From IMG/VR virus record IMGVR_UViG_3300045988_171102: a stretch of 64,000 nucleotides of DNA; one strand, written 5' to 3'. The stretch comes from a virus. A program made the translations under genes and the position numbers. Shown here piece after piece: positions 8,471 through 56,957 of the stretch. The notes below the pieces were generated by a model. That model searched no databases. It had not been told where the DNA came from and saw only the letters and a list, made by a program, of their open reading frames with translations. Within the stretch, counting starts at the first letter, position 1; each line of letters starts with the position of its first letter.

Positions 8471-9427
8471 TTAAATGTCGAGTTCCCTTTCCGACAGAAT
8501 TTCTCTTGCTAATCTCATTGCGGAACTGTGAGCGAATTTACCAAAGTCGTAACCAACCATTTCAACAACATCTTTTTCCTCTTTAAGACAATCATAATAA
8601 ATGTCTTTTCCAATATTTTTAGCAATTATTCCCATTTCTGTATTGCTCCAATTTTCAGGTATAACTCCATTATCAACCATTTTATGTATAAGTTTACGAA
8701 CTCTTGCTTTAGTAACAACCGTGCTTACTAAACGCTGATTCTCCGCTTTTTTGGCTAATGCGTCTGTGTCAACCATATGACTTTGTTTGTGTCCTTTCGT
8801 TTCACAAAACTGTTCACATACAAGCTTCACATAAAACGGCAATCTTGTGTTTGGATTATTTAAAGTTGTTTGGTTTTTTACAACTACACCTTCTCCGTAT
8901 TCGCCACCCATTTGTGTTTTACCGATATAAGATTTCACATCGTCCCAACTCGTAAACCTACCTCTGTAAAAGACAGGAACAAATGTGAGATTAAGTTCTT
9001 TTACAATTTTTTCTGTTTCTGTTTGTTTTAAATACTGTTGTGTGTTGGTATCATATACATCATAACAATATGCTTTGTGGTATTTGTTGTCAGGATATTT
9101 TACAGTATGGGGTACAAGCCACTCCATAAACAATATAAGATTACTCCCCAATACCGTTTTAATTAATTCTTTATCAAGTGTTTGAGACCAATTCCAAGCC
9201 CCTCTTAGAGTGTTGGTTTCGTCCAATTCCTTTCTACGACTAAATGCTTTGATGCTATCACTTTCGGCATCGTAACGAATTGAAAAGTTCGCTCCATCAA
9301 TTTTCTCTTGAATTACAATTTCATCACCTTCCGAAAACGCATCTAAATAATTAGGTTTAAGTCTCTCAATATCTAAATAATGCTTCTGCTGTATAATAAT
9401 CAATCCTTTCTCGGTTTTCTTCCACAA
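8471..9427 (-). CDS. ATP-dependent RNA/DNA ligase (nucleotidyltransferase superfamily)
   Basis: The KxDG adenylation motif is present in IQEKIDGANFSI. The size and layout resemble phage RNA ligases. Confidence 0.6.
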   Translation of the reverse strand: MWKKTEKGLIIIQQKHYLDIERLKPNYLDAFSEGDEIVIQEKIDGANFSIRYDAESDSIKAFSRRKELDETNTLRGAWNWSQTLDKELIKTVLGSNLILFMEWLVPHTVKYPDNKYHKAYCYDVYDTNTQQYLKQTETEKIVKELNLTFVPVFYRGRFTSWDDVKSYIGKTQMGGEYGEGVVVKNQTTLNNPNTRLPFYVKLVCEQFCETKGHKQSHMVDTDALAKKAENQRLVSTVVTKARVRKLIHKMVDNGVIPENWSNTEMGIIAKNIGKDIYYDCLKEEKDVVEMVGYDFGKFAHSSAMRLAREILSERELDI

Positions 9428-12983: not shown

Positions 12984-13208
12984 TCACTCCTTTATCAAAT
13001 ACAAATAACTATATCCTCCTGTGTTGCCTAATGGAGATACAGTTAAAGCCATCGCAATATGATTACCGGAATAAACTCTGTTTCCTTGCCTATATTGTTT
13101 ACCGAAGTTTATTTCACCCACACCTCCAACTATTTTTGTAACATTCTCAGAAACAGACGGAGTATTTAAGTCTGAGAAGCCTGAAAATTTATTTCTGGTA
13201 TGTAAAAA
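12984..13208 (-). pseudogene. start-less relic of a C5-methyltransferase target-recognition domain (cassette H)
   Basis: My translation of the open frame gives ...NVTKIVGGVGEINFGKQYRQGNRVYSGNHIAMALTVSPLGNTGGYSYLYLIKE*. This is a typical C5-MTase TRD pattern (vG....kqy.q.nRVYs..g.a.aLt....gg). There is no ATG, GTG or TTG, and the frame overlaps the 3' end of 13166..13843. Confidence 0.6.
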
Positions 13209-13843
13209 TTATTGGCATTTTCGTTTTCATATAACATATCTAATGCTGTTTCAAAAGCTCCAATGCCAGAAAAATAACTACCTACTTTTAGGTCATCAAA
13301 CAAATACGGCATTGCTTTATATAATTCCACATAAATGTGATAAAGAACATGTGTAACAATACTGTTTCCTGCCTGCTTATAAAGTTGAGTGTTGCTAATA
13401 CCTGCATTTTTTGCTTTTTCAAAAGCGTCATCTGAAAAACCCATAAGTCTCCAACATTCTTTTGGCGTTAATTTTCTAATGCGGTACTGAGTTTTGTCTA
13501 CCACGGCACTGTCAATGCCGTGGTTTTCTTTAACGGTTGCTGAAACGCCTTTTGTGTCAACAATCCTACTTGCTTCGTGATTGCTCGGCATATAATTACC
13601 AAGCACATTAATATCATTATTAGTTATCTTATCTATTTTTCTCACTCCTGTTTCTGTTGCTGTAATAGTGGGACAAATAGTGCCACACTCTTGAACTCTT
13701 CCTCTGCGTGTTTTACTACTTGGGTAACTTAAATCAGCTACCCCCCCGTTTTCACATTCAATATATCCTCTCTTTGTCGCTTGTTTGATTAAAATATTAT
13801 CCGACTTATCATAAATTTCGATAACTCTTTTACCCCCCCACAT
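13166..13843 (-). CDS. C5-cytosine DNA methyltransferase, C-terminal half (TRD, motif IX, motif X, then motif I)
   Basis: In order: TRD-like RRGRVQECGTICPTITATETG, motif IX YRIRKLTPKECWRLMGF, motif X LYKQAGNSIV, then without a stop KAMPYLFDDLKVGSYFSGIGAFETAL (FxGxG motif I). The MWGG start is inside a G7 tract and is probably not a real start. Confidence 0.8.
   Translation of the reverse strand: MWGGKRVIEIYDKSDNILIKQATKRGYIECENGGVADLSYPSSKTRRGRVQECGTICPTITATETGVRKIDKITNNDINVLGNYMPSNHEASRIVDTKGVSATVKENHGIDSAVVDKTQYRIRKLTPKECWRLMGFSDDAFEKAKNAGISNTQLYKQAGNSIVTHVLYHIYVELYKAMPYLFDDLKVGSYFSGIGAFETALDMLYENENANNFYIPEINFQASQT
13741..13747 (-). repeat. G7 homopolymer (C7 on plus strand), in frame in MTase C-half (ENGGV)
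   Basis: Read directly from the sequence. It encodes Gly-Gly. Confidence 0.95.
13833..13839 (-). repeat. G7 homopolymer at junction of TRD cassette F and the MTase C-half
   Basis: Read directly from the sequence. G8 or G5 would fuse ...GTIRTIECGG to KRVIEIYDK... Confidence 0.95.
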
Positions 13844-13964
13844 TCAATTGTTCGTATTGTTCCACACACATTATCTTTAAACAGACGATAACCTTCATCT
13901 GTTCTATATTCACACGGAATCTTTTTCATTTATCTTCCTTTCAATAATAAACGGTTGTAGATTA

Positions 13965-13970
13965 CCCCCC
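13965..13970 (-). repeat. G6 homopolymer, in frame in TRD cassette E (CQGGN)
   Basis: Read directly from the sequence, within GGGGGGTAAT. Confidence 0.95.
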
Positions 13971-14268
13971 TGACAGGTATTAATTGTGGGAGCAATATAT
14001 TCTGTATTGTAAACTCTTCCTCTACTCGGATTATCACGATTCGGATTCGGAGTTATATTGCCTATTTGTTTGATTATATTTGTTTTCATTATTAATCCTT
14101 ACTAATATTTTTGTTGCATCTTTATATTGAGAAACTGGTAAACAACAGCAAGCACCACTCGTTGAATACACTATTCCTTTTTTGCCCCCTACACCGAGAG
14201 TGCCGTATTTAATAATTTTGTGATTTTTTCAATTTTTTGTCTCCTTAACAATAATCATTGGTTTATTA

Positions 14269-14275
14269 CCCCCCC
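14269..14275 (-). repeat. G7 homopolymer at junction of TRD cassettes C and D
   Basis: Read directly from the sequence, within GGGGGGGTAAT. G8 or G5 would give ...TMSGGNKPMIIVKE, matching the cassette E pattern GGNLQPFIIE. Confidence 0.95.
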
Positions 14276-14521
14276 ACTCATTGTAAGTATGGTTGGAGAA
14301 ATATATAAACTATCACAAACAGCACCACGACCACTTGCGAACTACCCTTTATTTTTATATACACACCCCAATATGATAGGCTTTATGTTATTTATTTTGA
14401 TTTTGAATCACTCCGTTCATAGCTTGATTTCCAAATCCTTTATAATCTCTTGCGAGTAAAGTATTAGCGACATCAACTTCTTTGTCAAATTGACTACATT
14501 GCTTTGAGAATAGTCCGGTTT

Positions 14522-15319
14522 TTATACCTGAACCATATCCCATTGATGTCGGTCTATGCTTCCTCGCCCCCCAGTTCTTACGGTGTTGGAGATATCTTTT
14601 TCTAATTTTCCGCTATCAATCAAAGTTTCAATTAACTCGTTTGCTTTTGGCGTATTAACATAATATTTTTCTTCAACGCTATCTTCTGTAACATCTTTAA
14701 ATCGAACACCGTTATCAAATGGCTCAGGGAACTTAAACTGACCATTGTCTAACTCTTTTTTTATAATAATTAAGTACACACGCTCTCTATTTTGTGGTAT
14801 TCCGTAATTTTTAGCATTTAAAACTTGCCAATATGTATTGTAGCCGTATTCGTGAAGTTCGTTAATAAACATATCGAAGGTCTCTTTGAATTTTTTACCC
14901 ACAATATTTTTTACATTTTCGTAAATTCCCCATTTAGGTTTATTCGCCCTAATAATTCTTAACCATTCGACAAGCAAGGAACTCCTTGTCTTATCAAGAT
15001 TACAACTACCACAATTTGGACATTTATCTCTTGTGGAAAAATGTACTGTAAGCGGATTATATTCATGTTGACAATCTTTGCATTTCCACATACTGCCTGC
15101 CTGTTTACCCGATATTGAAAAATCTTGGCAAGGACTGCCTCCGCATATCATAGTAAATGGTTTTAAATTATTTTCATCAACCTTTGTTATATCTCCTAAA
15201 TTTAAACTTTCGTCCACACCATGAACTGCACAATAACTTTTTGTTGCGTATTTATCAAACTCGCAAAAGTTTACAAGTTCATAATTTTTACCTTTTAAAA
15301 CTCGTGTTTTATCTGCCAT
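14522..15319 (-). CDS. C5-cytosine DNA methyltransferase, catalytic half (motifs II-VIII plus first TRD), lacking motif I
   Basis: GGSPCQDFS (motif IV), IYENVKNIV (motif VI) and GIPQNRERVYLI (motif VIII) are present. By recall it resembles the SPbeta/SPR/phi3T multispecific MTases (YELVNFCEFDKYATKSYCAVHGVDESLNLGDITKV). The start at MADKT follows GAGGTG. No FxGxG is present. The track ORF extends to 15349. Confidence 0.85.
   Translation of the reverse strand: MADKTRVLKGKNYELVNFCEFDKYATKSYCAVHGVDESLNLGDITKVDENNLKPFTMICGGSPCQDFSISGKQAGSMWKCKDCQHEYNPLTVHFSTRDKCPNCGSCNLDKTRSSLLVEWLRIIRANKPKWGIYENVKNIVGKKFKETFDMFINELHEYGYNTYWQVLNAKNYGIPQNRERVYLIIIKKELDNGQFKFPEPFDNGVRFKDVTEDSVEEKYYVNTPKANELIETLIDSGKLEKDISNTVRTGGRGSIDRHQWDMVQV
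14567..14572 (-). repeat. G6 homopolymer in TRD A of MTase N-half (RTGGRG)
   Basis: Read directly from the sequence. G7 would read through into cassette B. Confidence 0.95.
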
Positions 15320-15321
15320 TT

Positions 15322-15657
15322 TTACACCTCTGGAATTGTTGCTGTACAATATTTTGCCATTGCTTGTGTGTATTCACTTGCGGTATTTTCCAAATCTATC
15401 TCGGATTCAGTTTTAAACTTATAAATTTTATATATTCCAATAACTTCGCTCAGCACTTCAGCACCACACATAATCATATCAATGGCATTAGTCGAAAGGT
15501 TTTCGCTATCTGTAACACAAATCGCAACACTTTCTTTGCCATTAGCATTTCGTGCCAGAACCATATCTCCTTTATTAAGAGATTCATTATCTGGGACTTT
15601 GCATGTATATCTTTTTGCGTTTTTATCCTGTATGTGTCTTACTTGTACAATATACAT
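15322..15657 (-). CDS. hypothetical protein
   Basis: 111-aa ORF that ends just upstream of the MTase start. Confidence 0.5.
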   Translation of the reverse strand: MYIVQVRHIQDKNAKRYTCKVPDNESLNKGDMVLARNANGKESVAICVTDSENLSTNAIDMIMCGAEVLSEVIGIYKIYKFKTESEIDLENTASEYTQAMAKYCTATIPEV

Positions 15658-16021: not shown

Positions 16022-16778
16022 TCATTCTCCTTTCCATTTAAACAAACATTCGGTTTTATGTTCTTTATTTTGAGCGTTAATACTTCGTAATACAGGCTTT
16101 GACCATACTGTTTCAAAGTCATTTGGAGCATATTGTTCACTTATATATACATAATTATTTTTTGACAATCTTCTTGCAAAATTCCAAAAATCAATATGAT
16201 CAAAGTTTGTTGCAATTCCAAATTCTTTCGTATGAAAGTATGGCGGATCAAGATAAAAGCATACACCTGAATAGTCTGTTTTAAGATAACACTCATAAGA
16301 TATGCAATTCAATGATACTGTCGATAAATCGCTTGCTTGTTTTTCAAGATTGCGCTTGCTTTCTTGATAATAGTCACGGATTTTGTTACCGTTAGGTGTT
16401 TTTATACTGGTAGGCTTTGCATACCCGCCATCAAACCATCTGCCATTATACGAAGCAAGAAAACCTACATTTCCAACATACCACTGTTCGTATTTGTCTT
16501 TATCTGTCCCGTTTTTCCAAGCATCTCTCACAAGGTTGTATGTATCTCTCGACACTTCATCAAGTAAAGGTTTTCCTTCTTGTACTCTTTTGAGCAATGC
16601 TATCAGGTACGGATTTATGTCAGAACCTATACGCTCTTGACAACGAATCTTATCAATTACATTACCCCCCTCCAACAAAGGGTTCTATGTATGTAGTCAC
16701 ATGATTGCTGTCAATACATTCCTGTAATATTGGAACAATATATTTAGCAATACGAGACTTGCTTCCCATATACTTCAT
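16022..16778 (-). pseudogene. Dam-like N6-adenine DNA methyltransferase interrupted by a frameshift in a G6 tract
   Basis: AAGGAGATATTA-ATG opens MKYMGSKSRIAKYIVPILQECIDSNHVTTYIEPFVGGG* (16662..16778). The remainder (track ORF 16022..16678, carrying YLDPPYFHT) is in the -1 frame. G5 would give the canonical EPFVGGGNVIDKI. Confidence 0.8.
16665..16670 (-). repeat. G6 homopolymer at frameshift point of Dam-like gene
   Basis: Read directly from the sequence, within GGAGGGGGGTAAT. Confidence 0.95.
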
Positions 16779-17967: not shown

Positions 17968-18837
17968 TTAATAATTTGTAATTAAAACTTCTATTGAACT
18001 GTTGCCTGTTTTTACCTTAGTTTGATAGTTGCAATTATTGTAATCTTTGATTAGATAATGTGTGTTGTAGTTCTTACTCCACTCTTTAAGAATTGTATTT
18101 TCTTTACCTTTGTGTTTTGTAACATTCGACAAAGCAAATTTGCCACCTTTTGAGTTAATAATGTCAAGTAAATTAAGAAGTTCTCTCTCATAATCTTCTG
18201 ACCATTTACAAAAATAATCTCGTTCATATCCACCAACAGTAATAAGATAAGGCGGATCACAATAATAGAAAGTGTTATTAAATTCTGGCGAATCTAAATT
18301 CAAATTATGAAAATCGCTGCTGTAAAAACTAATATTTTTCTTGTCGATAGCTTCTATGTATTTTACAAGTTTATCCTCTAATGATTTAGAGAAGTAAGAC
18401 CTGCTTGCACCAGACGGCATATTAAACTCTTTATTCTTATTAAAGGCTATTTGATAGTTGAATGCGTGAGTAATTAAGCAATATAAAACTACTGCATTTT
18501 CTCTATCAAGATTATCTTTCAGATTTGTATTATAGTAACTTCTTAAATTAAGAAATTCTTGCTTACTAAACTTGTTCAATTTGTATGTATCAATCATTTC
18601 TTTAACTTCGTCTACGAATTTACTATCGAGATTTCTGAAGATATTAACGAGTGGTTTACATTTGTCGTTATACACAACCTGTTTTGCATTCACATTTAGT
18701 GAAACTTCTCCACCCCCTCCGAACAAATCTACAAATTTATCAATTTTCTTCGGAAAGAGAGGTAGAATCTGAGGCAGCAATTTATACTTACCACCAATAT
18801 AATTAAAAGGATTTTTCAAATAATCTATATTTACCAT
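17968..18837 (-). CDS. dam: DNA adenine methyltransferase (Dam / D12 class)
   Basis: GGKYKLLPQI, DLFGGGGEVS (motif I, encoded with an in-frame G5) and CDPPY (motif IV) are present. Confidence 0.85.
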   Translation of the reverse strand: MVNIDYLKNPFNYIGGKYKLLPQILPLFPKKIDKFVDLFGGGGEVSLNVNAKQVVYNDKCKPLVNIFRNLDSKFVDEVKEMIDTYKLNKFSKQEFLNLRSYYNTNLKDNLDRENAVVLYCLITHAFNYQIAFNKNKEFNMPSGASRSYFSKSLEDKLVKYIEAIDKKNISFYSSDFHNLNLDSPEFNNTFYYCDPPYLITVGGYERDYFCKWSEDYERELLNLLDIINSKGGKFALSNVTKHKGKENTILKEWSKNYNTHYLIKDYNNCNYQTKVKTGNSSIEVLITNY

Positions 18838-53724: not shown

Positions 53725-53997
53725 TTAAATCTCCCTATACATTTTCTTTGCGGTTGGTACGCCATACTCTTGAACAAGATTCCAAAGCACATCCAACCCT
53801 TGTATATCTATATGCAAAATTTCTGTCGAATCTACAACACCTTGCAACCAAGCTTGTGCTGTTTCATCTGCAATATTCATGAATTTTCCATATATCTTTT
53901 TACCAGTATCGGATTCTAAAAGAACAGGTAAATCTTTGGAATAAATTTCTTTCCTTGTATATGGTTGTTTCTTTATGATACTTTTTGATCTCCCCAT
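53725..53997 (-). CDS. hypothetical protein
   Basis: 90-aa ORF. Confidence 0.45.
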   Translation of the reverse strand: MGRSKSIIKKQPYTRKEIYSKDLPVLLESDTGKKIYGKFMNIADETAQAWLQGVVDSTEILHIDIQGLDVLWNLVQEYGVPTAKKMYREI

Positions 53998-56957
53998 CTT
54001 ATTACATAACCTTCTTCCGTTTTTTCTTTATACATGAGGTTCTGCAACATATTACTATCCACTCCAAAACGTTCATATAATTCATCGTCTGTCAAATCCT
54101 GATCCTTCATAAACAGATTTAATTTGTCTTTTACAAGAATCATTTTTAACAGATTGCTTTCAATACTATTCTCGTAAGTTACAAAATACACTTGCTTGAA
54201 TTCCGTTGAAGTATAACGAATAAAGCGGAAATAATACTGACTCATGCTGGAGTTGTTCCAGTGCAATTCTGGAATAATACACTTATTCACAAAATCAATA
54301 TTCATACTTGCAGATAAGCTCTGCTGTGTGCTTATTAGAATTCCGTTTGTTGTTTCTTTTAACTCTTTGACAATTTTCTTTCTCTGTTTCAATGTAGTTT
54401 CATTTCCAGTAATCACAAATACAGGTCTACCCGGAAATGCTTTTTTGATTTCCTTTGCATATGCATCTACTACTGAAATATGACGCACACCAATAGCAAC
54501 TCTTTCATCAGAAAATTCGTCTAAAAGTGATAATACAGTTTTGAATTTTTCCGGCATTATCGACTGATTGTACTCTCTCAACATCTGAGGCGCAGCGCAA
54601 ATCTTCAAAAGTGCAAGCAACTGATTCAAAATTTTCAACATTGCATCTTTCCGGCTGTTCCCAGTTTTCGCAAACAGATATTCCATTTTATAGAACTCAT
54701 CCAATGCAACCTTATACAGACGTTTCTCTTCTTCTCCCATTTCACAAGCAATCTGTATAATCTCATAAAGCTGTTTGCCAGTAATTTCTTCAAATGTACG
54801 TGTGATAATCGTCTTATCAATCATCTGTTTCAAAATGTCTGCATTAAGAATATCTTGTGTGAACTGAGATACGCCAAATACAGTGATTTTCTCTGGAATA
54901 TGACTCGCTGCAAATAACTTACTACCCTTACGATATGCTGGATATGGCTGTAAAAAATATTCATTTATCCGGTTTTCCAGTTCTCCATCTTTGTTGCGTT
55001 CCATAATATACTCACATTCAGACAGCATATTGATAGAATTGTTGTACAATAATTCAAACTGAGGATAAATTTCAGTGATATTATTCCTTGTGCTTGTACC
55101 CGTCATCAGTGTTTTATACTTCAGCCGGCGAAAAGCATTTAATACGGCTTTTGTCCGTTTACTATCCTGATTACTCATATTATCCGATTCGTCAAAAATC
55201 AAAACGGCTTTCTGGCAGATTGATTTTACATATCGCTTGATGAATTTATGATATTTACACATCATATTTAAAGTGATAATTACAAATTGACCTTCTTTGA
55301 TATTTTGAATATCTGCAAGGTTTCCAATCATAACAAAATCAATACCGTACTGATCCAATACATCCTGCCAATTGTTCTTGATTGAGATTGCCGTACTCAC
55401 AATAAATACATTTTTCACATGATCGTGCTGCAAACGATATTTACCTATTGCAATTCCGGCGAATGTTTTACCGCTTCCCTGTTCCCACTGTATGAAACTA
55501 TATGGTTTCTGAATAAACAGATTCAGATCCGCTTTCTGAGCATCATTCAGCTTTATAGTTCTTTCATCATCCGTCAATGTAAACTCATCAAGCCACTTTG
55601 CTATTTTTTTGTTTGGTTGCATTTCAGAAAATGGCATATTCTGGATATCATACATCTTTCGCTTTTTATTCACGATCTTATCAATCCATTTTGACTGAAA
55701 ATGCCCCATTGAAAAGCCTTGCAACACAACATCGTTTATAGATGTAAAATCGCCATTATACTCAAATGTATAATTGTTTTTAATAATTCTACCAGTTCTA
55801 TCAAGTTTTGGATTCTGTGAACATAACGCCATTTTTAAATGCTTAATAACATCTTTCGGCTTGATTTTAAGTTGTTCCCATTCGTCCCATTTGATATGAT
55901 CCGGTTTTTTCTGTGTCTTATACCTATTGACATATTCACAACATTCTGCATACTGGCTGCATGTTTTCGGATTTCGTTTGATATCATACAGGAGTTTCTC
56001 AACCTTAAAACTCCACGCTTCATCGTCTTTACTATTTCTTACGGTTTCCAGAAAAATCTTGTTTTTAATCTGTTCTCTTTCTTCTGTAATAGGCTTTAAA
56101 TACTGCTCCCATACTTCATCGGAAGTAACACCGGAAAGTATCTCTGTACTATATGGAACTTCTTTCGTATATTCAGATTTTTTCTGAAAGAACACTATTT
56201 TGGTCTTGTAGTTCTCAACGCCCAAATGCTTAAAAGTATTCTTGTCAAGTTCTACTTGGCAGATAAAATTAAAATGCTCATTCATTCCGTCAATCATGCC
56301 ACCATCAGAGAAACTGTCAGCACAAAACGACATAGGCACGATAATAGCCATAATTCCGGCTGGCTTTAACAGTTCCGCAGCTTTCAGACAATAATAATAT
56401 TCTGACAAATAGTTACTGTCATCTTTTCTCCATCTCAGATTATACGGTGGATTTCCCAGAACATAATCAAAAGTAATTTTCGGCTCATAAAAACGAATAT
56501 CTGTATTTTCCAGCTTTGCATCTGGATAAAGGTATTTTGCCACTCTGTACGGCTTCCCGTCTAATTCGCAACCGTAAAAATTCGATTCAACCGGCGCACA
56601 ACTAATAAATGAACCATGTCCACAAGTAAGATCTGCTATCAAATCAGTATTTGAAATATGTAAACAATTATAAATCCATTCAACCAGCTTATAAGGTGTA
56701 AAGAACTGTCCTTGCTCAATATCTGCTTTCGCTCTCTGATAATCATAGTAACTATCATAGTTGTTGAACTCTAAACCATGAAGCCCACCTAATCCAGTAT
56801 ATGCATTGAAAATATCATCTTTTGAAATACCTGTTTCTACTTCTGGCAAATCGTTATTCACAATATATTCAATTTTTGTATTGATGTCTTCCCTCATTTT
56901 CTGTGGGATTACTTCATTTGTACATTTATACTTCATGACTTGTATATCTCCATTCAA
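53973..56957 (-). CDS. fusion protein: N6-adenine DNA methyltransferase domain plus SNF2/DEAD-like helicase domain
   Basis: N-terminal half has ADLTCGHGSFI (motif I) and LGNPPYNLRW (motif IV). C-terminal half has WEQGSGKTFAGI (helicase motif I) and IFDESDNMS (motif II). Confidence 0.8.
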   Translation of the reverse strand: MNGDIQVMKYKCTNEVIPQKMREDINTKIEYIVNNDLPEVETGISKDDIFNAYTGLGGLHGLEFNNYDSYYDYQRAKADIEQGQFFTPYKLVEWIYNCLHISNTDLIADLTCGHGSFISCAPVESNFYGCELDGKPYRVAKYLYPDAKLENTDIRFYEPKITFDYVLGNPPYNLRWRKDDSNYLSEYYYCLKAAELLKPAGIMAIIVPMSFCADSFSDGGMIDGMNEHFNFICQVELDKNTFKHLGVENYKTKIVFFQKKSEYTKEVPYSTEILSGVTSDEVWEQYLKPITEEREQIKNKIFLETVRNSKDDEAWSFKVEKLLYDIKRNPKTCSQYAECCEYVNRYKTQKKPDHIKWDEWEQLKIKPKDVIKHLKMALCSQNPKLDRTGRIIKNNYTFEYNGDFTSINDVVLQGFSMGHFQSKWIDKIVNKKRKMYDIQNMPFSEMQPNKKIAKWLDEFTLTDDERTIKLNDAQKADLNLFIQKPYSFIQWEQGSGKTFAGIAIGKYRLQHDHVKNVFIVSTAISIKNNWQDVLDQYGIDFVMIGNLADIQNIKEGQFVIITLNMMCKYHKFIKRYVKSICQKAVLIFDESDNMSNQDSKRTKAVLNAFRRLKYKTLMTGTSTRNNITEIYPQFELLYNNSINMLSECEYIMERNKDGELENRINEYFLQPYPAYRKGSKLFAASHIPEKITVFGVSQFTQDILNADILKQMIDKTIITRTFEEITGKQLYEIIQIACEMGEEEKRLYKVALDEFYKMEYLFAKTGNSRKDAMLKILNQLLALLKICAAPQMLREYNQSIMPEKFKTVLSLLDEFSDERVAIGVRHISVVDAYAKEIKKAFPGRPVFVITGNETTLKQRKKIVKELKETTNGILISTQQSLSASMNIDFVNKCIIPELHWNNSSMSQYYFRFIRYTSTEFKQVYFVTYENSIESNLLKMILVKDKLNLFMKDQDLTDDELYERFGVDSNMLQNLMYKEKTEEGYVIRWGDQKVS

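Follow-up and report, generated by a model that had tools for sequence, protein, structure and literature searches.

The subject of this study is a C5-cytosine DNA methyltransferase (C5-MTase) gene on the minus strand of the IMG/VR virus record IMGVR_UViG_3300045988_171102, of which a stretch of 64,000 nucleotides was analysed; this whole stretch is called the window. It is probable that, in one phage lineage, a C5-MTase with several target recognition domains (TRDs) has been converted into a multi-gene contingency locus, in which slipped-strand changes in the length of poly-G tracts decide which parts are in frame. This reading is built on the tracts themselves, on a length polymorphism that is specific to G, on the frame outcomes of the different lengths, on the split structure of the gene, on codon bias and on purifying selection.

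The window has a GC content of 32.8%, and a homopolymer census of its 64 kb found six runs of at least six C on the plus strand, that is G on the coding strand (Table 1), and no run of at least five G on the plus strand. Five of the six runs fall within 832 bp of the C5-MTase variable region, all six are in two MTase genes, and no tract of at least six G occurs outside MTase genes in the 64-kb window. An earlier sequence-only reading of this DNA had counted five such runs within about 830 bp and a sixth in another methyltransferase, which is a D12 adenine MTase, and had named a comparable tract density in non-MTase genes as the finding that would speak against phase variation; the census bears it out on both points. 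The enrichment that it expected from a homopolymer count is evident as clustering, with eight of nine GGGGGG matches inside the 832 bp and nine of nine in MTase genes, but the window-wide excess is only modest (9 vs 3.4 +/- 1.6 in shuffles). The sequence GGGGGGTAA occurs four times vs 0.16 expected. The context GGGGGGTAAT, attributed earlier to three of the five variable-region tracts, accompanies two of them (14269 and 13965), the third instance being the tract at 16665 in the other MTase. The tracts do encode Gly-Gly, as had been noted, but they lie within TRDs as well as at TRD ends and are therefore not only joints between cassettes. Runs that stand directly before a stop codon read G(n)TAA four times and G(n)TAG once, and an extra composite tract (G5 plus A6, 14178-89) is found inside cassette D. 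As in a simple sequence repeat (SSR) contingency locus, all six G6-G7 tracts are inside coding sequence, where translation of each state confirmed that gain or loss of one unit alters the frame, and they are over-represented relative to both composition and codon usage.

The family was assembled by scanning IMG/VR, GTDB genomes and metagenomes, including ENA and JGI metagenomes, with the N-half protein, which gave 198 loci and, after dereplication, 142 unique MTase regions, all of them consensus assemblies. These comprise 91 single open reading frames (ORFs) without a run of at least six G, 47 split loci with such runs, four split loci without tracts, and no intact locus with tracts. The intact class consists of single ORFs of about 450-720 aa (453-720 aa) with 3-6 tandem TRDs, and the split class carries 1-8 tracts of G6-G12 per locus; in total, 140 tracts of at least six G were found in 101 kb of split loci vs 0 in 142 kb of intact loci, at a GC content of 35.9% in each. 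The split clade spans an N-half identity range of 68-99%, and among its members are a Ruminococcus metagenome-assembled genome and the genome of the isolate Ruminococcus sp. YE282 (L081), while the intact clade is found in Lachnospiraceae genomes, e.g. Blautia, Dorea and Faecalimonas. Intact enzymes contain, in one and the same frame, '..EIDVANTLLARDYKGFGNQAMN..' (the homologue of cassette B), '..GYAGGVWDSNNISPTLTTMQGGGRQPHII' (the C homologue), '..VGNIS..NPQVGRVY..SPTLNTC.GG..PK' (the E homologue) and 'AIRQATKKGYIECE.GGVADLSYP.SKTRRGRVQ..CPTITATE', which corresponds to cassette G and the start of the C-half. Since cassettes A-G are homologous to these in-frame TRDs of intact relatives, they are genuine TRDs. 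In the split loci richest in tracts (L026 with eight, L024 and L148), successive TRD units of about 60 codons, mostly Met-initiated, carry the poly-G site at the Gly-Gly before an 'xSPT[LI]' core or at a 'GG' before 'xxPxII'.

The length of the tracts differs between close relatives, and it does so specifically at G. Against 11 relatives with at least 88% nucleotide identity, runs of at least six G differ in 17 of 32 comparisons, runs of at least six A or T in 4 of 90, and A or T runs of five in 14 of 409. Near-identical pairs of independent assemblies show length differences confined to the tracts: L026 and L027 align over 6733 bp with 0 mismatches and have G11 vs G6; L006 and L122 (8047 bp, 1 mismatch) have G12 vs G11; the four indels between L128 and L136 (9283 bp, 5 mismatches) are all in poly-G/C, and the two between L009 and L188 (10766 bp, 42 mismatches) are both in poly-G. 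In a three-way alignment of the window with L005 (96% nucleotide identity) and L003 (97%), nearly all indels are at G tracts or adjoining A runs. Tract polymorphism with conserved flanks among close genomes is a further property of SSR contingency loci, and homologous tracts span G5-G12 among close relatives. All three frames are found at a given junction across different split-clade genomes: at tract 1, 16 loci read 'GG-RGSIDRHQWDMVQV' and stop, 11 read 'GG-[AE]RKHRPTSMGYGSG..TLLARDYKG..' with cassette B fused, and about 6-7 end in 'GG-EEA'. Tract 4 is G5, G6 or G7 in relatives, with the E mini-ORF in frame (ON) in 11 and out of frame (OFF) in 13; tract 5 varies from G5 to G9, with beta ON in 6 (including L007, L083, L188 and L123, which has G8) and OFF in 17; tract 6 is G7, G8 or G9, and the junction between G and VADL is ON in 7 and OFF in 3. 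The intact clade is in frame at the compared junctions in 56/56 and 54/54 sequences, the E-homologous TRD being in frame in 56/56. Slipped-strand length variation, as the sequence-only reading had proposed, is thus strongly supported by the comparison of near-identical pairs, of lengths from G5 to G12 and of three frames per junction.

In addition to changes in length, L003 and L007 lack 93 nt exactly between tracts 5 and 6 (window 13748-13840), so that 'TIECGG' abuts 'VADLSYP'; L007, with G7, keeps the frame across the resulting junction, and L003, with G8, does not. G tracts with similar flanks (ATTGAATGTG and GAATGTGAAAAC) appear to act as recombination points. A second source of variation appears to be recombination at tracts and conserved TRD ends, to judge from this deletion and from the differing cassette sets of L001, L002 and L004.

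The locus is a set of separate genes, namely alpha, several TRD mini-ORFs with their own Shine-Dalgarno sequence (SD), start and stop, and beta, and not one interrupted ORF. The assignment of reading frames made earlier (A=1, B=2, C=1, D=2, E=1, F=0, C-half=1) was reproduced by three-frame translation. The conclusion that had been drawn from it, of one ORF broken only at G tracts with a net shift of zero, does not hold: B/C, D/E and E/F are separated by stops and new starts, and therefore no set of G-tract lengths yields a single ORF; indeed, 0/47 tract-bearing relatives have one. The catalytic motifs of C5-MTases (PCQ, ENV, QNRERV, IX, X and the S-adenosylmethionine (SAM) motif) are all present, and several TRDs stand in tandem between motifs VIII and IX, as in multispecific C5-MTases. 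A single polypeptide with the core and all TRDs is found in the 91 intact members and neither in the window nor in the 47 tract-bearing relatives. As in heterodimeric C5-MTases, the motifs up to VIII and motifs IX-X are on separate ORFs, the break falls within the variable region, and the second subunit has its own translation start. The Pfam DNA_methylase profile (PF00145) matches ORF 14522-15349 over the motifs up to VIII (E=7e-47), and its positions 247-322 (motifs IX/X) are matched by ORF 13166-13843; no Pfam match was obtained for cassettes taken singly, for the C-terminal tail or for the fragment downstream, all of which are too short.

Table 1. Features of the C5-MTase locus and of the D12 MTase genes in the window, with the G tracts of the homopolymer census.
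Feature	Coordinates	Strand	Description
Second D12 adenine MTase	17968..18837	minus	Pfam E=5.5e-35; intact; G5 at 18713-17 in the FGGGGE SAM motif
D12-class (Dam-like) adenine MTase	16022..16777	minus	Pfam PF02086; frameshifted at tract 16665-70
G tract of Dam-like MTase	16665-70	minus	G6
Alpha gene	14522..15319	minus	C5-MTase N-core (motifs II-VIII, PCQ, ENV, QNRERV) and TRD A (NTVRTGG-RGSIDRHQWDMVQV, then stop)
Tract 1	14567..14572	minus	G6; sets alpha C-terminus
Cassette B	14388..14564	minus	TRD '...FDKEVDVANTLLARDYKGFGNQAMNGVI...'; out of frame with alpha here (OFF)
Cassette C	14229..14382	minus	TRD '..IKPIILGCVYKNKG' (stop) 'FASGRGAVCDSLYISPTILTMSGG' / 'GNKPMIIVKETKN' (stop)
Tract 2	14269-75	minus	G7
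Cassette D	14034..14232	minus	TRD '..KIIKYGTLGVGG-KKGIVYSTSG..YKDATKILV'
Cassette E	13910..14089	minus	stand-alone 59-codon TRD mini-ORF (MKTNIIKQIGNITP..RGRVYNTEYIAPTINTCQGG-NLQPFIIERKINEKDSV, then stop); SD AAGGA and ATG
Tract 4	13965-70	minus	G6
Beta gene, 5' part (cassette F)	13789..13929	minus	MKKIPCEYRTDEGYRLFKDNVCGTIRTIECGG; SD GAAAGGAAG and ATG at 13927-29
Tract 5	13833-39	minus	G7
Beta gene, rest	13166..13831	minus	'KRVIEIYDKSDNILIKQATKRGYIECENGG' segment, tract 6, TRD 'VADLSYPSSKTRRGRVQECGTICPTITATE', motifs IX and X, C-terminal motif I (SYFSGIGAFETAL)
Tract 6	13741-47	minus	G7
TRD-like fragment	12984..13208	minus	3' of the MTase stop, in another frame (..FGKQYRQGNRVYSGNHIAMALTVSPLGNTGGYSYLYLIKE, then stop)

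The consensus of the window represents one combination of states of these parts. Alpha is translated from an SD (GAGGTG) and an ATG at 15317-19, and with G6 at tract 1 it ends in the A tail, RGSIDRHQWDMVQV, which leaves cassette B OFF; G7 would fuse cassette B, and the third frame leads to a stop after GG-EEA. That one extra G joins A to B, as previously suggested, is seen in L003, L005 and L007, which have G7 and a fused A-B ORF, and TRDs homologous to cassette B are in frame in intact-clade enzymes, e.g. L028 and L036. Cassette B ends at TAA, and cassette C follows in another frame with no tract between. Cassette C is homologous to the L028 TRD 'KFIGNV..GYAGGVWDSNNISPTLTTMQGGGRQPHII' but is OFF and, in comparison with L005 and L003, contains a nonsense change (CAG>TAG at 14342-44), so that it is open for only 28 codons; the cassettes had all been described as uninterrupted and TRD-like, and here the TRD homology stands while the uninterrupted frame does not. 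Tract 2 is out of frame in cassette C, and G8 or G5 would turn it ON. Nor does an extra G at 14269-75 fuse C to D, as had been claimed: cassette C then continues only into '...GGNKPMIIVKETKN' and meets a TGA (14229-31) ahead of D. The composite tract of cassette D (G5 at 14185-89, A6 at 14178-83) keeps the frame, but the cassette has lost its start, since an additional A (A6 at 14224-29) shifts its SD (AAGGAGA) and TTG at 14230-32 out of frame. In L005 and L003 the opposite is found, with AAGGAGG and the TTG of D in frame and the G/A tract out of frame (G7+A5 and G5+A5). Cassette D runs on into cassette E, in which tract 4 is in frame, so that E is ON; E overlaps the start of beta by 20 nt in a different frame. 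As the sequence-only reading had stated, cassettes E and F each have their own SD and ATG (AAGGAttaataATG and GAAAGGAAGataaATG, respectively).

Beta, in turn, is OFF in the window, as G7 at tract 5 shifts its frame and the product ends at 13789-91, while tract 6 further on is in frame. With G8 or G5 at tract 5, beta would be ON; complete beta ORFs are found in L007, L123, L083 and L188, the window equivalent being 13166-13929 when tract 5 is in frame. The earlier prediction that F would be joined to the C-half by one more G at 13833-39 is realised in L123, where tract 5 is G8 and the ORF is fused. The beginning of beta is well conserved: cassette F follows the pattern 'MK[KI][IV][PC]CE.R.DEG.R.F.D...G.IRTI..GG', with the Met right after a stop in 22/23 split-clade loci and an SD-like sequence in front in 19 of these 22, and this type of cassette was not found in the intact clade. 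Downstream of beta, the fragments homologous to 12984-13208 in L128 and L136 have a G6 tract at GG, and additional TRD-like sequence follows motif I in some intact relatives (L067).

Analysis of selection was based on Nei-Gojobori counts in split-clade sequences only. In their own frames, the ratio of nonsynonymous to synonymous polymorphism per site (pN/pS) was 0.16 for alpha, 0.16 for the IX-X-I region, 0.10 for the A tail (14 codons), 0.28 for B, 0.25 for F, 0.10 for G and 0.11 for the VADL TRD. Cassettes C, D and E of the window have too few gap-free homologues, and the test was made on L001-type relatives, whose D-like and E-like mini-ORFs, pooled and with both halves each in its own frame, gave 0.17 (D-like about 0.15, E-like 0.19). 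The two shifted frames gave 0.9-2.3, with 0.8-1.9 for cassette B. Even cassettes that the consensus has out of frame are thus being kept as coding sequence, which is predicted by reversible switching and not by decay. Codon choice points in the same direction. At the site that encodes GG-VADLSYP, all of about 62 unique intact-clade sequences have GGT-GGT, GGT-GGC or GGT-GGA and no poly-G, vs mostly G7-G9 in the split clade. GGG makes up 9.6% of the Gly codons in the 56 other ORFs of the window, and none of the 43 Gly-Gly dicodons in these ORFs is GGG-GGG; the tracts thus oppose the codon preference of the genome and look selected rather than accidental.

On this basis, a mechanism can be proposed in which the enzyme would be made in pieces: alpha, with motifs II-VIII and the first TRD; TRD mini-ORFs of about 60 codons; and beta, with a TRD, motifs IX-X and, after them, the relocated motif I. 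In each of these, a conserved Gly-Gly would coincide with a run of 5-12 G, and polymerase slippage during replication would alter the length of this run by one unit or more, moving the downstream part in or out of frame in a stochastic and reversible manner. In particular, tract 1 would exchange the C-terminal TRD of alpha, tract 5 would switch beta, and the mini-ORF tracts would switch single TRD units. By analogy with M.AquI, alpha and beta would be expected to assemble into an active enzyme, and the tract states to alter the methylated motifs. Variation within a clone would be expected at high frequency, resulting in phage subpopulations with different methylation patterns. The selective benefit may be one of bet-hedging, in which some phages would be protected from modification-sensitive restriction and others would go unseen by methylation-dependent (Type IV) restriction. 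The specificity switching that the sequence-only reading had put forward is plausible for tract 1; the most conserved tract, that of beta, is more simply seen as an ON/OFF control, and a switch of beta at tract 5 is probably a switch of the whole enzyme. Since it is the truncated beta that carries the SAM-binding motif I as well as motifs IX and X, the consensus of the window, as judged from its sequence, is probably OFF for C5 methylation altogether.

Some observations weigh against a functioning contingency locus. No relative with all pieces ON was seen among the 47 tract-bearing loci; beta is ON in 6/23 loci, which is near the expectation for random drift and fits a mostly-OFF locus or weak selection on state; and the window has non-reversible lesions (the TAG in C and the lost start of D), some of its cassettes being truly decaying. 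Differences between assemblies could partly be homopolymer miscalls, especially at G9 and above, and G5-G7 is at the low end of the tract lengths known as hypermutable. Furthermore, the activity of a split, circularly permuted enzyme is assumed, and we know of no stand-alone TRD polypeptide that functions in any C5-MTase. Several of these points would suit a decaying pseudogene array, in which the enzyme was inactivated in an ancestor, the tracts drift neutrally and the ORFs are debris: such an array would account for the two lesions, for the lack of a relative with every piece in frame and for a share of beta ON close to the neutral expectation of one-third, and it would sit well with the four split loci without any tract and with Streptococcus phage Javan117, where a comparable break into N-half, mini-ORF and C-half occurs without poly-G. 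We nevertheless regard decay as unlikely. Own-frame pN/pS values of 0.10-0.28 across alpha, beta, B, F, G and the D-like and E-like cassettes, vs about 1-2 in shifted frames, are not those of debris, the start and SD of beta are kept, with the Met after the stop in 22/23 loci, and the architecture is preserved down to 68% amino acid identity of the N-half. Decay would also leave unexplained the change from GGT-GGN to GGG-GGG at many sites against codon bias, as well as the tracts in other, intact MTase genes of the same phages.

Still less likely is that the tracts have fixed lengths and that a mixture of fusions arises by transcriptional slippage or by -1/+1 ribosomal frameshifting. G6-G7 runs with an immediate stop do resemble shift-prone sites, and purifying selection on out-of-frame cassettes would be equally expected; against this, the DNA polymorphism covers three frames per junction, so that no single direction of shift could be conserved, and most cassette boundaries (B/C, D/E and E/F) have no tract but stops and new SDs and starts. 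Recoding of this kind may occur on top of DNA slippage but is no substitute for it. Finally, homopolymers, and long G runs above all, are prone to error, and the true gene might be one intact ORF broken by miscalls; the Dam-like MTase of the window, one G off seven relatives, could on its own be such a case. As an explanation of the locus this is very improbable, as 47 unique loci, including the isolate Ruminococcus sp. YE282, share the split structure with tracts, the same alignments show A/T runs of equal length to be stable, correction of lengths cannot rebuild one ORF across three junctions that have a stop and a start and no tract, and an intact sister clade without any run of at least six G indicates that the tracts are real sequence. 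The assembly errors and gene decay that the sequence-only reading had kept as trivial alternatives are therefore largely excluded by the 47 unique loci, the isolate among them, and by purifying selection on out-of-frame cassettes.

The reading of a poly-G contingency locus can be taken further, to a model about which we are rather doubtful. In this model, the enzyme would be a modular C5-MTase of several subunits, whose TRDs, made from the mini-ORFs, would be free polypeptides of about 60 aa that dock in trans on a split alpha/beta core, in the way that S subunits do for Type I enzymes, each with its own poly-G switch. Together with the tracts in other MTase genes, this would amount to a combinatorial, heritable but reversible methylome lottery, a viral phasevarion. 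The pooled pN/pS of 0.17 for both halves of the mini-ORFs and the conserved starts and stops are compatible with it.

The order of the motifs in this family also deserves attention. The family protein starts at motif II (..ELVNFCEFDKYA..), with no more than 25 open codons upstream and without F-x-G-x-G (window 15280-15319; 142 loci), and motif I (S[YF]FSGIGAFE.AL) is at the extreme C-terminus after motif X (window 13166-13330; all 142 loci). When this tail is placed ahead of the N-half, the alignment to M.HhaI residues 16-92 is collinear, motif I included. The possibility that the 'FSGIGAFE' tail is the start of a second, truncated MTase was considered and rejected, as the tail is kept at the C-terminus of all intact members, whose N-termini are without motif I. 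The natural permuted C5-MTases in REBASE in 2018 all had a topology of IX-X before I-VIII (PMC5944983), and a C-terminal motif I may thus represent a new type of natural permutation. Between motifs IV and V of alpha there is, in addition, a zinc-ribbon insert of the form CxxC...CxxC (MWKCKDCQHEYNPLTVHFSTRDKCPNCGSC, about 14990-15095, minus strand) with weak Pfam matches to HypA and Zn_ribbon_8, which is kept in split and intact clades alike.

Poly-G tracts are also present in other MTase genes of these phages. In the Dam-like adenine MTase of the window, G6 at tract 16665-70 results in EPFVGGG and a stop, so that the gene is OFF, whereas G5 gives EPFVGGGNVIDK.., with the intact SAM motif EPFVGGGNV; the gene is intact with G5 in seven close relatives. 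In the second D12 MTase, which is intact in the window, the FGGGGE site has G8 in L003, L123, L012 and L020 (in frame), G7 in L014 and G10 in L008 (both frameshifted), with tract positions of 3074 in L003, 1200 in L008, 1069 in L014 and 2074 in L123. Indeed, many of the remaining tracts of at least six G/C in the flanks of split-clade loci fall in other DNA MTase genes, including the D12 MTase at FGGGGE, a further D12 enzyme, another C5-MTase at GGSPC and a beta-class 'DLPY' MTase. A fourth gene of DNA MTase type in the window, without a G tract, encodes a 994-aa protein (53973-56957, minus strand) in which an N6-adenine MTase (N6_Mtase/Eco57I-like) is fused to a DEAD/ResIII helicase.

With genes for Pol III alpha, primase, a RecD-like helicase, NrdD/NrdG, RNA ligase and integrases, the element is phage-like, and the lineage is one of large gut and rumen phages, whose nearest cellular copies are in Ruminococcus genomes. 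No close cultured phage was found by megablast in INPHARED, where sensitive blastn returned only short MTase-core similarity to Streptococcus and Clostridioides phages. Reassignment of a stop codon (TAG or TGA) as the origin of the fragmentation was rejected, as coding is dense under the standard code and the stops between cassettes are a mixture of TAA and TGA; that the only tRNAs of the window are Leu-TAA and Gln-TTG is a further point against it. The contig of Ruminococcus sp. YE282 (NZ_FMUV01000001.1) ends 9 bases past the start of a G10 tract at position 8930, which suggests that the assembly broke at a hypervariable homopolymer. A related prophage MTase in Streptococcus phage Javan117 (L199, MK448672.1, 9253-10572) is annotated as two coding sequences, between which an unannotated TRD mini-ORF of 51 codons (MDIIKIGVIEPNF..GIAPTIRAYAGGNLEPKILV..) lies in a different frame; its frame changes are at A-rich runs, without poly-G, and it has the canonical placement of motif I. 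Split MTases with several TRDs may be more widespread than the clade of the window.

Phase-variable MTases are a classic bacterial strategy, and here a virus appears to vary its own anti-restriction methylation, at the level of single recognition modules and across several MTase genes together. If this is true, phages would hedge between hosts that cut unmethylated DNA (restriction-modification) and hosts that cut methylated DNA (Type IV), a trade-off discussed mostly from the bacterial side. In virome assemblies, such loci will be taken for pseudogenes or 'corrected' as if they were errors, and variable methylation would confound the methylation-based linking of gut phages to their hosts. The presence of a clade member in the isolate Ruminococcus sp. 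YE282 makes the system open to experiment, and the family would offer natural split, circularly permuted and possibly trans-acting TRD architectures for the engineering of targeted C5-MTases.

Among known systems, the multispecific C5-MTases of Bacillus temperate phages studied in the Trautner laboratory (M.SPRI, M.Phi3TI, M.Rho11sI and M.H2I) have one core and tandem short TRDs between motifs VIII and IX. To our knowledge, they are single polypeptides with the canonical motif order I-X and no repeat tracts. The family of the window shares the tandem TRDs between VIII and IX, and its N-core is 36% identical to the phi3T MTase (M13488), but it has a C-terminal motif I, and the clade of the window is split and carries poly-G tracts. 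Since its core and TRDs are not on a single polypeptide, this clade does not belong to the SPR/phi3T multispecific family in the strict sense. The two-polypeptide arrangement has a counterpart in M.AquI, where the break lies inside the variable region, the large subunit having motifs I-VIII together with a portion of that region and the small subunit the rest with IX-X (PMC3404938). M.EcoHK31I is likewise made of two polypeptides, and complementation by fragments is known for M.BspRI, M.BsuRI, M.HhaI and M.SssI (PMC3404938). The layout of the alpha and beta genes is alike and agrees with such complementation, whereas M.AquI and M.EcoHK31I are without reported repeat tracts or phase variation and without TRD mini-ORFs between the subunits.

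Poly-G control is known in phages from the receptor-binding proteins of Fletchervirus (Sorensen et al. 2021), and homopolymer loci have been described in T2/T4 in a 2025 preprint (PMC12633550; PMC12823448). These share with the present locus phage-encoded tracts, reversible frameshifts and phenotypic heterogeneity, but the targets in Fletchervirus are host-recognition proteins. A methylase gene of Bordetella phage BPP-1 has a single poly-G tract that is said to be 'not studied further' (PMC12633550). None of the Fletchervirus, BPP-1 and T2/T4 cases has a TRD array, a split enzyme, several MTase genes or a gut Firmicutes phage. In the literature searched, no case was found of a TRD array, a split multi-TRD C5-MTase or several MTase genes of one phage under poly-G control. 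The sequence-only reading had thought such switching undescribed for phage multispecific MTases; this agrees with the search as far as the TRD array is concerned, but the claim is to be tempered in view of the tract in the Bordetella phage methylase and of the poly-G contingency loci known from phage genes (PMC12633550).

Functionally, the closest known case, from among the SSR contingency loci (phasevarions) in methyltransferase or specificity genes of bacteria, is the hsdS of the NgoAV Type I system of Neisseria gonorrhoeae, where a poly-G tract of 6-9 G, depending on the strain, lies between hsdS1 and hsdS2 (PMC9577141). When one G is lost, the halves are joined and a different sequence is recognised, and other lengths truncate the product (PMC9577141). 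Here, too, a coding G tract is at the boundary of target-recognition modules, and tract 1, with its putative choice between A tail, fused cassette B and stop, is formally alike. NgoAV differs in being a Type I S subunit on a bacterial chromosome with one tract, whereas the present locus encodes a Type II-like C5-MTase with tandem TRDs in a phage, with 3-8 tracts per locus distributed across mini-ORFs and further tracts in 2-4 other MTase genes.

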